A DNA stretch of 26,143 nucleotides from a virus. Lineage: Duplodnaviria; Heunggongvirae; Uroviricota; Caudoviricetes; Demerecviridae. Shown here one piece after another: positions 10,364 to 25,560 of this stretch. The position numbers and the translations under genes were made by a program. The stretch is from the IMG/VR virus record IMGVR_UViG_3300044984_002785; one strand, written 5' to 3'. The notes below the pieces were generated by a model. The model did no database searches. It was not told the origin of the DNA and worked only from the letters and a program-made list of their open reading frames with translations. Every line of letters begins with the position of its first letter. Within the stretch, counting starts at the first letter, position 1.

Positions 10364-11748
10364 ACTAGTACGGCCCTTAATCTGTTAGTTACTTGCTGTG
10401 CAGCAATTTCTCTGATTGATGCTGATATTAGCAATTTAGGGTCTCGGGACTTTGGTAACTCTTGGCGACCACCCTGACTAAAGGTTGCATACGGGCTTTT
10501 CATATAAGTATAAAAAGCGGTAATCATACCTTGTCTGCTTTGAGATAGAGAGTCTACTTTAGCAGATCCAGCTAATCTACCGGTACGGTAATTAAGAATA
10601 TCTCTGCGGTTACCGTTACCCATATTAGCACTTATTACATCTTGTAACTGTTGATTAAGTAGTAGCAATAACTTTGCTAAACTCACAGTGCTTGTTAACT
10701 TTTGTTCTTTTACAGGAGCTGGTCGAGGTATTTTTTCTTTAACTGCCGTACTGGCTGGTAGTTTATTATTAGTACCAATAATTAAAGACTTACCTTTAGG
10801 ACCTTTTTGTGGTGCGTGAGGTTTTAACTTGACTTTACCAGTTTTTATTAAACTAGCTACAGCTTTACCTATATCTTGTAATATAGTATTTGAACCACTT
10901 ACGCCCAGGTACTTTTGTACTAACTTCTTATCCGCTAACAGTATGGCTAGATTCTCTTGGAAACTCTGAAAGATCTTTAGCTCTCTAGCTCCAAAGTCTT
11001 TTTGGTTAACTTCAGATCTTTGAATAGTTACAGCAACAAATACAGTACCAAATAATTTTTCCACACCTTTAAATACTTCAGGAGTACTATTTCTAAAGGA
11101 ATAATCAAAATCAGCTTGAATACTCATTATCTCGTCAAGCATATCTGTTGCAAGAGTTGTGGCTTTAGTGTATCCTCTAATTTCCAGTATATCCGCAATC
11201 CGGCCTATCTTTTCTGCTAACGGAGATACAAAATATTCCGAAGCATTACTAGGTATATGTCCTATATCTAGTAAACTCACCTCTTGCGTAACTCTCCAGT
11301 CTTCCTCGGCTTCTCCGGGATAGTCTGGTTTTCTTATCTTTTTAATACCAAAAGCAGTATCTACTAGTTTTGGATCTCTAACTACATCTCGTATGAATTT
11401 TTGTATTGCGTCATAGGACATTGCTAATAATAGCTGTGTGTCTTTCCCGCCATCTATATATACTAAATAAGGTTTTGAGCCCAGGAAGTGTTCTGGAGGT
11501 ATAAGCGATATTGAAGAATATTTTCTAGTCGCTTTAGCTGACACAACTTCAAGGAATTTCTTATGTAACTCATCAAAATTAACTAAGATATTTTCTTTAT
11601 TATTAACTAGCAAACTATTATAAGAAATATCAAGTACATGAGGTCTTTTATCTAAGTCTAGCTTGCGAGTATCAAATAATAACTGTGCTCTTATGTCTTT
11701 ATCTAAAGTACTTATTAGATCTTTAAGAGTTATACTTCCGGTAGCCAT
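10360..11748 (-). CDS. Tail completion/neck protein with a large N-terminal extension (462 aa)
   Basis: C-terminal T5 p143-like motif (LNYRTGRLAGS...FYTYMKSPYATF...RDPKLLISASIREIA) and synteny. Confidence 0.7.
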   Translation of the reverse strand: MATGSITLKDLISTLDKDIRAQLLFDTRKLDLDKRPHVLDISYNSLLVNNKENILVNFDELHKKFLEVVSAKATRKYSSISLIPPEHFLGSKPYLVYIDGGKDTQLLLAMSYDAIQKFIRDVVRDPKLVDTAFGIKKIRKPDYPGEAEEDWRVTQEVSLLDIGHIPSNASEYFVSPLAEKIGRIADILEIRGYTKATTLATDMLDEIMSIQADFDYSFRNSTPEVFKGVEKLFGTVFVAVTIQRSEVNQKDFGARELKIFQSFQENLAILLADKKLVQKYLGVSGSNTILQDIGKAVASLIKTGKVKLKPHAPQKGPKGKSLIIGTNNKLPASTAVKEKIPRPAPVKEQKLTSTVSLAKLLLLLNQQLQDVISANMGNGNRRDILNYRTGRLAGSAKVDSLSQSRQGMITAFYTYMKSPYATFSQGGRQELPKSRDPKLLISASIREIAAQQVTNRLRAVLV

Positions 11749-23368: not shown

Positions 23369-23419
23369 TTATCCACAGGTTATCCACAGGAGCAAAAACT
23401 TGTCCACAGGTTATCCACA
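23369..23419 (+). promoter_or_regulatory. Cluster of four co-oriented DnaA boxes
   Basis: TTATCCACA at 23369, 23380 and 23411, and TTGTCCACA at 23400 (start spacings 11, 20, 11). Confidence 0.8.
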
Positions 23420-23431
23420 GCCTGGAACAGG

Positions 23432-24344: not shown

Positions 24345-24389
24345 ATTTATACTTGATTGTGCAGTTTGAATACTGTATAATAGATATAT

Positions 24390-24700
24390 ATATAAGGGTG
24401 ACAGCGGCGTGCTATATGTAAATCTTAGAATTTAGCACATACGTCTTAATTGTGGGAAATCTCGTGACCGAGCCACAGCCCTGAACATATAAGAACTAGC
24501 CTTGACTAGGCATAGGTTTTGGTGGGACACGACATGTGTAGGTATCGATAGTTCGCGGCGGCCGTCGTATACAAGTAACTACTACTCTACAAATCAAAGA
24601 TTCTACTAAATTCGCAAGACTAGTTCTTATATGTTTATGGTGTTATGCGTCTACGCTATATAGTAGATAACAACTTAATTGAGACCGAAGCTAGTCTCAG
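24390..24700 (+). ncRNA. Candidate structured RNA(s) upstream of tRNA-Glu
   Basis: TTGATT-17-TATAAT promoter (24353-24381). Multi-stem domain at ~24395-24483, and a perfect 16-bp long-range helix 24484-99/24620-35 enclosing sub-hairpins. Confidence 0.55.
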
Positions 24701-24708
24701 CCAAATTT

Positions 24709-24783
24709 ACTGCGTTCGACTTCAGGTGAGGTCATCACCCTTTCAAGGTGACTAGATGGGATCGATACCCATACGCAGTACCA
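24709..24783 (+). tRNA. tRNA-Glu (anticodon UUC)
   Basis: Acceptor ACTGCGT/ACGCAGT plus A-CCA, D-arm GAC/GTC, anticodon arm TCACC-CTTTCAA-GGTGA, T-arm ATGGG-ATCGATA-CCCAT. Confidence 0.92.
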
Positions 24784-24793
24784 AAGGAATAAT

Positions 24794-24904
24794 ATGATAC
24801 CAATAGTATTTGCTGTAGTTATTTTATCCTGGCTATTTAGCCCAGGAACAGCACTAGGTATATTTATACTCATAGCTGGCATACTAGTGCTAGCTAGTTT
24901 ATAG
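24794..24904 (+). CDS. 36-aa uncharged membrane peptide
   Basis: MIPIVFAVVILSWLFSPGTALGIFILIAGILVLASL, with an AAAGGA RBS directly after the tRNA CCA. Confidence 0.65.
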   Translation: MIPIVFAVVILSWLFSPGTALGIFILIAGILVLASL

Positions 24905-25464
24905 CCCGGGTAACCTTCTGAAGATGGTCTGACCCTAAATTGTAGAACGCGTTACAGCTTCTTTAAATGCGAGTTATCTGTCGCAGCAATTTTAAATGTG
25001 ACCGAAACCCTCAGCACACGGCAGCTGTTCGCGATGTATTCACAGTACGTCCACAGCCGCAGTTGAGGGTCAAGGCTGGGATGGTGTTAGCACACCAGAA
25101 CGATTGAGATCACACCTTGGTGAAAGAACACCAAAAAATACAGCTATGATCTAAACAAGACCCGGATAGCTCCGGAAATGTAGTTGCGGGAAGTTGCACT
25201 CCCGGCATCGGACGCATAGTCTGTTGTGTAGAGCAAGCCACAATACTACTAGCGGCATGGAGAGTACAATTGTAGTAACTATCCCAAACAAAAAACTACT
25301 AAAGAGGAAGGCAGTATGTAAGCTTCGGCTGTGTACGTCCTCTAATAAAATTGTTAAGCTAACAGAGTAAGGGCCGATCGCGAAGCCAGGGAGTGAGAAC
25401 CTTGCCGGGACTGTGACGACCTTATTTGAAGCCAGGTATGCCTCACATACGTTAACAATCAACT
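24905..25464 (+). ncRNA. Candidate large, ornate structured ncRNA (~560-590 nt; GOLLD/ROOL size class, family not assigned)
   Basis: Higher GC, no credible plus-strand ORF, more than 12 helices visible by eye, adjacent to a tRNA and ending at an intrinsic terminator. Confidence 0.6.
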
Positions 25465-25500
25465 AGCCCACCAGGAGTCATGCCCTGTGTGGGCTTTTTG
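25465..25500 (+). terminator. Intrinsic terminator closing the RNA island
   Basis: AGCCCAC-CAGG...CCTG-T-GTGGGCT followed by TTTTG. Confidence 0.8.
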
Positions 25501-25523: not shown

Positions 25524-25560
25524 GCGCCAAATTATACCAGTGCAAAAACTCCACTGTCAA
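25524..25560 (-). repeat. Leftward promoter-like repeat, copy 8
   Basis: GCGCC 25524, ATTATA 25531-36, TGTCAA 25555-60 (18-bp spacer). Confidence 0.8.

Follow-up and report, generated by a model that had tools for sequence, protein, structure and literature searches.

Stable phage RNAs without a known function, among them T5 RNAX, T4 RNAC and RNAD, GOLLD and ROOL, are a long-standing question. The T5 stable RNAs (RNAI, III, IV, RNA1-3, RNA2H and RNAX; AY543070) and T4 RNAC/RNAD (PMC3014915) are non-coding and some are tRNA-like; those of T5-type phages are co-transcribed with tRNAs and their role is unknown. GOLLD and ROOL are large, highly structured phage RNAs found near tRNAs, also of unknown function (10.1101/2024.12.08.627333). 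In addition, type I hammerhead ribozymes are already known from phage and prophage intergenic regions, where they have been proposed to cut long transcripts (Perreault et al. 2011, PMC3088659; RF00163). Here we analyse positions 24905-25500 of a 26,143-nucleotide (nt) stretch of viral DNA (IMG/VR record IMGVR_UViG_3300044984_002785; hereafter the window, meaning the whole stretch). This region encodes a genuine, structured non-coding RNA in an uncultured aquatic phage of the T5-like kind. Its 5′ third is a hammerhead predicted to cut the transcript in two, and the rest is a string of modules, pieces of which are exchanged among related phages.

The hammerhead resembles the published phage examples in its full core, three stems, GUC site and intergenic setting, and differs from them in the long inserts of stems II and III, in an extra U after A9, and in its position at the head or end of a non-coding array rather than flanking protein genes. 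In the T5 and T4 RNAs the likeness is to non-coding, partly tRNA-like pieces, but here the pieces are chained in a single RNA and shuffled; the region has no sequence homology to the T5 stable RNAs (nhmmer best E 0.5), which contain no hammerhead core. With GOLLD and ROOL the region shares size, dense structure, phage origin and a tRNA neighbour, but it has no match to their models, no conserved global fold and an internal ribozyme. Further parallels exist with the arrays of type III antitoxins and with pseudo-ToxI from phage TE (PMC5086642, PMC3475682), namely H-type pseudoknots, A-rich stretches, a promoter-to-terminator string and possible decoy logic; one downstream module, module C, could be such a pseudoknot unit with an A-rich loop. 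Unlike the toxI, cptI and tenpI arrays, however, the units here are dissimilar rather than tandem repeats, lack any sequence match, and are followed by a terminator and a backward promoter with no toxin gene. Finally, module B keeps the tRNA core tertiary positions seen in YrlA Y RNAs (PMC4201824), including the 15-48 pair, but is not circularly permuted, lacks a Ro60-binding stem, a Rfam match and a CCA, and has a 4-base-pair (bp) acceptor. We found no published description of this array, and a 2026 ribozyme preprint makes no mention of phages; the modules may be among the 8,495 IMG/VR candidate RNAs of PMC10690425. The present analysis contributes the scatter of the long-stem hammerhead subtype, the mimic of a tRNA core and the tests on a terminase tree.

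The hammerhead ribozyme

On sequence evidence, 24914-25075 belongs by structure to the type I hammerheads. From 5′ to 3′ it runs CCUU (24914-17), CUGAAGA (24918-24), an extra U (24925) after A9, GGUC...GACC, GAAA (25004-07), stem III, GUC and AAGG. This gives three helices with stem I open (stem I, 24914-17/25072-75; stem II, 24926-29/25000-03; stem III, 25007-15/25062-70) and a GUC cut triplet at 25069-71, with predicted cleavage after C25071. Every core base fits the consensus. An earlier annotation made without database searches (the sequence-only reading) had listed complementary words across the region, all of which lie where it placed them, and its long arm ACCCTCAGC/GTTGAGGGT, which carries compensatory changes in homologs, is stem III of this ribozyme, which that reading had not recognised.

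Homologs were collected as 80 loci fetched via the neighbouring D5-like gene, with further loci from pattern scans (L### denotes such loci, G002-G006 whole relative genomes and X# metatranscriptome runs). A descriptor scan of 1.6 Mb of these loci returned 52 distinct hits, 51 of them the hammerhead element (the window's copy included), and 27 copies score at least 14, against 0-1 in shuffled DNA. When 37 copies are aligned by sequence only, 88.7% of cells are paired and double-sided changes occur at 14 of the 18 pairs, a level reached by none of 500 shuffles; slid controls drop to 25-45% pairing. Compensatory changes are seen in all three stems. In the window's subtype, which has a long stem II and carries the extra U behind A9, pairing reaches 94% and a further helix covaries. 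Natural hammerheads may hold a base between A9 and G10.1, and in chrysanthemum chlorotic mottle viroid (CChMVd) a U at this position raised trans-cleavage 3-4-fold (PMC3705267). The Rfam RF00163 model gave no match in three whole relative genomes, though it gave none in any control either; Rfam misses this ribozyme because of the long inserts in stems II and III. The ribozyme very probably cuts in vivo.

The extended stem II (24930-24999) holds an internal loop with TGACCCT, a covarying helix (24938-42/24987-91) and a variable insert. The TGCGA/TCGCA helix with flanking TTTAAA/TTTAAA, proposed from the letters, falls within a variable insert and is absent from L064, and AATTG/CAATT covaries instead. 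ACCC in loop II is a possible partner of GGGTA (24908-12), which would bring stems I and II into contact; the bases are nearly invariant and therefore give no covariation. For the TGACCCT of loop II, a pseudoknot with GGGTA 24908-12 or an inhibitory pairing with the cut site is possible. The complementarity TGACCCT/AGGGTCA, which the sequence-only reading had suggested as an alternative pairing, is 7/7 in three homologs and invariant, and TGACCCT is also a genome-wide DNA word. In computed folds the active hammerhead lies 2 kcal/mol above the minimum in the window, and in L064, L084 and L123 the computed minimum pairs TGACCCTAA with the cut site, so that the alternative pairing may compete; on these models it may be a real competing fold.

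The position of the ribozyme varies. In L093 and L097 it sits immediately 3′ of the promoter, which leaves the downstream array as the sole product of note, and in L052, L054, L056 and L062 it lies ~10 nt 5′ of the terminator, where cleavage would only trim the 3′ end. A bulged-stem hammerhead in L050 (about 10830-10930) was missed by the descriptor, and L069 has a degenerate core at about 10830-10900. Two jobs for the ribozyme were rejected. Maturation of a tRNA 3′ end is disfavoured since a type I cut leaves the ribozyme attached to the tRNA and most relatives have no tRNA. Circularisation via a second TTAGGGTC site near the 3′ end is disfavoured because the window has no second TTAGGGTC site and, in relatives, the bases after it vary and pair downstream.

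Pieces of the region are present in RNA libraries from several aquatic studies. Run X1 holds a near-identical strain, and one of its contigs passes the predicted cut by 7 nt and then stops in Illumina adapter sequence at 25079; because neither RNA ends nor strand nor level can be read from contigs, the hint is weak. Contig depth in X1 and X3 is greater on the modules than on the D5-like gene and was not used, because contig depth cannot rank genes; nor was the lack of cover in X9 taken as evidence.

Modules of the non-coding unit

The region forms the 3′ half of a longer unit that runs from a promoter through tRNA-Glu and a 36-amino-acid (aa) open reading frame (ORF) to a terminator. Its features are:

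24353..24381, + strand, sigma-70-type promoter (at the same spot in relatives)
24388..24700, + strand, upstream conserved non-coding modules within the predicted 5′ cleavage product (nhmmer matches in dozens of relatives)
24709..24783, + strand, tRNA-Glu(UUC) (present only in some relatives)
24794..24904, + strand, hydrophobic ORF of 36 aa with AAGGA as ribosome-binding site, lying between tRNA-Glu and ribozyme (sequence)
24914..25075, + strand, type I hammerhead ribozyme (descriptor, covariation, folding)
24930..24999, + strand, extended stem II of the hammerhead (covarying helix; putative pseudoknot with invariant bases)
25083..25096, + strand, small hairpin with UAGC loop (compensatory swap in L123)
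25119..25254, + strand, module B, including the tRNA-core mimic (covariation, tRNA invariants, blind T5 run)
25259..25299, + strand, module C, H-type pseudoknot (S2 swaps in 3 relatives; S1 invariant; few homologs)
25303..25343, + strand, UUCG-capped arm (four different contexts; covariation)
25350..25459, + strand, multibranch domain (covariation in the closing stem; interior variable among phages)
25465..25500, + strand, intrinsic terminator (z -3.39; conserved)
25531..25560, - strand, backward consensus promoter, antisense into the 3′ end (also at this position in relatives; 12/12)

Module B consists of an AAAGAA-loop hairpin, an A-rich linker and the tRNA-core mimic, and has about 40 matches. 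The mimic is a four-way junction with tRNA geometry and cloverleaf arm order: a 4-bp acceptor-like stem (25143-46/25250-53), a D-like arm, an anticodon-like arm (25162-75) and a T-like stem (25180-84/25245-49) with a 60-nt insert. Both sides change in 15 of the 22 pairs of module B, and in 20 of 22 in a model-fitted alignment that includes diverged copies. The tRNA core positions are nearly fixed (U8, A15, A21 and Y48 in 27/27; A14 in 26/27). When the module B model was run blind on 18 kb of T5, it ranked tRNA-His first, with the register correct, and its top ten included six genes for tRNAs or tRNA-like RNAs, at low scores (best E 0.025). The module lacks a 7-bp acceptor, CCA, D-loop GG and a conserved, 7-nt anticodon loop, the window's copy also lacks a T loop, and neither ARAGORN nor Rfam calls it a tRNA. 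Module B is a tRNA mimic and not a tRNA.

Module B also occurs alone, directly 3′ of an A2-like gene. Solitary copies lie at L012:9188-9288, L007:9239-9338, L034:9198-9291, L029:6420-6520 and L066:5972-6065; in four of these five the acceptor is lengthened to 8-12 bp and the T loop has 7 nt, so these solitary mimics could be RNase P substrates. In L012 and L007 the module is absent from the array and a diverged copy lies elsewhere. As a separate observation, L068:10300-12800 is an enlarged non-coding stretch in which repeated long stems frame several tRNA-like pieces.

Module C pairs S1 (25259-65/25278-84, with one G-A mismatch) and S2 (25272-76/25295-99) around an A-rich loop. Two S2 pairs are swapped in L064, L075 and L088, and S1 is invariant among the few homologs; the pseudoknot descriptor misses this module because of its G-A pair. 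Across the family, A-rich pseudoknots number 45, against 20-29 in shuffles, and TAAAA occurs 123 times against 42. GGA motifs are rarer than expected (GGA 301 against 381; ANGGA 93 against 111), which disfavours a CsrA sponge of the CsrB/RsmZ type.

Most of the remaining helices named by the sequence-only reading survive comparison with homologs. The GGTGT/ACACC helix is wholly swapped in L123 with its UAGC loop unchanged, and CCGGA/TCCGG carries compensatory changes, but the loop of the latter varies, and the UAGC loop said to be shared by these two hairpins is therefore a coincidence. For CGGGA/TCCCG, compensatory changes support the core only. Covariation supports both the UUCG arm and the stem that closes the last domain: AGAGGA/TCCTCT is swapped in L075, L020 and L125, and ATTGTTAA/TTAACAAT in L064, L075, L081 and L088. 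The terminator proposed there is conserved and folds well (z -3.39), and was absent from a simple scanner's list. Two helices are not borne out by homologs: TACTAC/GTAGTA keeps 4/6 pairs in L064 and each of its strands covaries with another partner, and TGTTGTG/CACAATA is disrupted without compensation in L123 and L064.

One alternative is that the modules are small-molecule aptamers or more ribozymes, the array acting as a nucleotide or metabolite sponge or processing itself into small RNAs. Several riboswitch classes are compact pseudoknots with A-rich tails, an architecture that the modules recall, and junction and loop bases are strongly conserved here while stems vary. However, none of the riboswitch or ribozyme models in Rfam matches, even when E values up to 5-10 are allowed, an X1 contig is continuous across most of module B, and tRNA invariants account for that module, which makes this alternative unlikely. 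Considered as twister, pistol, hatchet, hairpin, NAD or c-di-GMP elements, the modules fitted none of these classes, and Rfam gave no such match.

Mosaicism and candidate functions of the array

The region does not align as one unit across homologs. L064 and L123 align with it almost throughout, L018 and L041 over only the first 170 nt, L075 over two later pieces only, and many other loci over one 90-nt piece only. From cut to terminator the RNA measures 426 nt in the window and 240-856 nt in relatives, and the median pairwise BLAST coverage of these post-cut RNAs is 0%. Module order and content vary even between close relatives: the nearest terminase relative, L012 (87%), has no array module in common with the window, and L064 (77%) and L075 (67%) have several. 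On a terminase tree of 29 rows (loci without a complete array or terminase excluded), the long hammerhead subtype requires 6 changes for 6 carriers, and a single clade is rejected (approximately unbiased (AU) test p 8e-77); module B requires 5 changes, 3 of them forced by well-supported branches. A different module follows module C in almost every carrier, metatranscriptome contigs add two further neighbours, and the neighbours of C and those of the UUCG arm differ in each carrier. No post-cut module is common to all relatives, and no inter-module helix is supported. Pieces of the array are exchanged among related phages, and we are confident that the array consists of independent modules rather than one global fold.

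These observations bear on the proposal, made by the sequence-only reading, of one ornate ~590-nt RNA like GOLLD or ROOL, with a global fold and possibly a nanocage. What held of it is a long, structured, uncatalogued phage RNA adjoining a tRNA, with covarying homologs and no GOLLD or ROOL match; its 5′ third belongs to a known ribozyme class, and the downstream modules have no Rfam match. Its size, phage origin and tRNA neighbour fit GOLLD and ROOL (10.1101/2024.12.08.627333), module order is mostly kept in L123 and L064, and GOLLD's own 5′ region is variable. The Rfam GOLLD and ROOL models that it named for a check gave no match, though, and the internal ribozyme predicted to cut, the lack of a universal post-cut module or supported inter-module helices, and the solitary copies of module B already largely refute a single fold, which we consider very improbable.

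Rapid turnover could also reflect a recombination hotspot that gathers decaying tRNA relics and selfish hairpins without common purpose, as the tRNA-derived appearance of module B and the degenerate hammerhead of one relative, L069, might suggest. Against this, the stems hold 89-96% pairing despite many double changes, and the promoter-ribozyme-terminator frame is retained at only 65-87% terminase identity; we regard such a hotspot as improbable.

We favour, at a probability of roughly 0.55, an array of RNA decoys, processed by the ribozyme and shuffled, whose targets would be host RNA-binding or defence proteins. An early sigma-70 promoter would produce a ~1.1-kb transcript (24388-25500), and the hammerhead would cut it after C25071, so that the 5′ piece keeps the tRNA and the body of the ribozyme and ends in a cyclic phosphate. 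The freed ~425-nt 3′ RNA would carry a 5′-OH end, a poor substrate for 5′-monophosphate-dependent decay. Neither of the two new ends would be a favourable place for decay to begin, and cleavage probably adds stability to the released RNA. This RNA would be a string of small independent folds, swapped between phages via recombination and serving as decoys or docking sites for host RNA-binding proteins, chiefly anti-phage RNases that read tRNA shapes or pseudoknot antitoxins; each phage would carry a fold set matched to its host. The reading is favoured because the folds are structure-conserved, mutually unlike, quickly exchanged and located where the early region begins, like counter-defence cargo, and because tRNA shape and A-rich pseudoknots are recognised by several anti-phage RNases, with a precedent in phage TE. 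Type III antitoxins are H-type pseudoknots whose cognate toxins cleave A-rich RNA, and the TE pseudo-ToxI is a phage RNA mimic that silences a type III toxin (PMC5086642). By analogy with such systems, a decoy role for the folds themselves is a tentative proposal, somewhat short of even odds. A wider version, an RNA-only counter-defence island whose ribozyme-matured, interchangeable folds each neutralise a different host sensor or RNase and are traded like cassettes, is speculative and rather doubtful; its folds would be the tRNA-core mimic, antitoxin-like pseudoknots and possibly ligand sponges.

Several points weigh against the decoy array. By sequence, none of the modules is like a host antitoxin or RNA; plasmid searches were blank, and a genome scan for host likeness was blank except for one chance match. 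Pseudo-ToxI resembles ToxI, whereas the modules match no host RNA, and the aptamer, scaffold and DNA-level readings therefore stand as rivals. Without a conserved anticodon loop, CCA, D-loop GG and, in the window, a T loop, module B would be a poor decoy for anticodon nucleases. Pseudoknot enrichment is about twofold. Modules occur in L075, L088 and L068 with no hammerhead detected there, X2 and X3 contigs span the cut site, and the placement before the terminator in L052, L054, L056 and L062 indicates that a 5′-OH end is not the ribozyme's sole use. RNase E, in addition, has a direct-entry route that is independent of the 5′ end (PMC4191395).

The scaffold and DNA-level readings hold that the RNA is a scaffold for the phage's A2/D5-like DNA-binding paralogues, or that the locus acts as DNA (an origin, polarised boxes) with the RNA as accessory. 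The word GACCCTAA occurs 17-24 times per relative genome (G002-G006) against 1-7 in the control, clusters and flips strand at the locus, and is built into loop II and stem III of the hammerhead; A2/D5-like genes lie on both flanks and DnaA boxes 1.5 kb upstream. Compensatory changes in many stems nevertheless show selection on RNA structure, and the window's post-cut RNA has no GACCCTAA copy, which leaves these readings with a low probability. Apart from this question, GACCCTAA is strand-polarised, its orientation flipping at the locus and roughly half a genome away, like Chi/KOPS words. In the window it lies at 24931+, 25581+, 24164-, 25701- and 10443-, and brackets a promoter as an inverted repeat. 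Long-stem carriers (window, L018, L041, L064, L081, L084, L086) have it in loop II and none post-cut, and most short-stem hammerhead carriers have 1-3 copies downstream of the cut.

If the decoy array is real, RNA counter-defence extends from single mimics to exchangeable multi-module arrays. Even without a decoy role, the locus provides a hammerhead subfamily whose stems II and III accommodate large inserts, together with several folds new to Rfam, including the tRNA-core mimic, and the family gives many natural variants of small parts that can be synthesised and tested singly.

Coding potential and genomic setting

Rfam searches of the window at gathering and E-value thresholds returned the tRNA only. 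The region folds better than shuffles (z -2.95) and has no credible ORF, the longest + strand ATG ORF being 46 aa. A minus-strand protein of 103 aa (25151-25462), expressed from the backward promoter, has a negligible chance of being the product: the ORF is present and also open in near-identical L123, but it is interrupted by many stops in L064, begins with TTG, has no family match and spans independently shuffling modules. The 36-aa ORF upstream of the ribozyme has no Pfam match, is absent from close relative L123, and is present with substitutions in RNA-library contigs.

BLAST against cultured phages and plasmids gave no real match to the region, and no close cultured relative of the phage was found; among cultured phages, T5-type phages of Vibrio and of enterobacteria match best, with protein identities of at most 50%. 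The window's minus strand encodes terminase, portal and a fused protease-capsid gene. Small pre-early genes and DnaA boxes are also present, and A2/D5-like DNA-binding genes flank the non-coding block on both sides. The promoter at 24353-24381 most likely drives the entire 1.1-kb non-coding unit, starting at about 24388; as it is the nearest + strand promoter, 24905 is not the RNA start that had been proposed. The predicted backward promoter, in contrast, was placed correctly (25560..25531, 12/12). The modules at 24388-24700 are conserved more widely than the region itself, and a three-stem element immediately 3′ of the promoter is kept in most relatives. A DnaA box cluster at 23369-23420 lies within an injection-stop-like block upstream of the unit.
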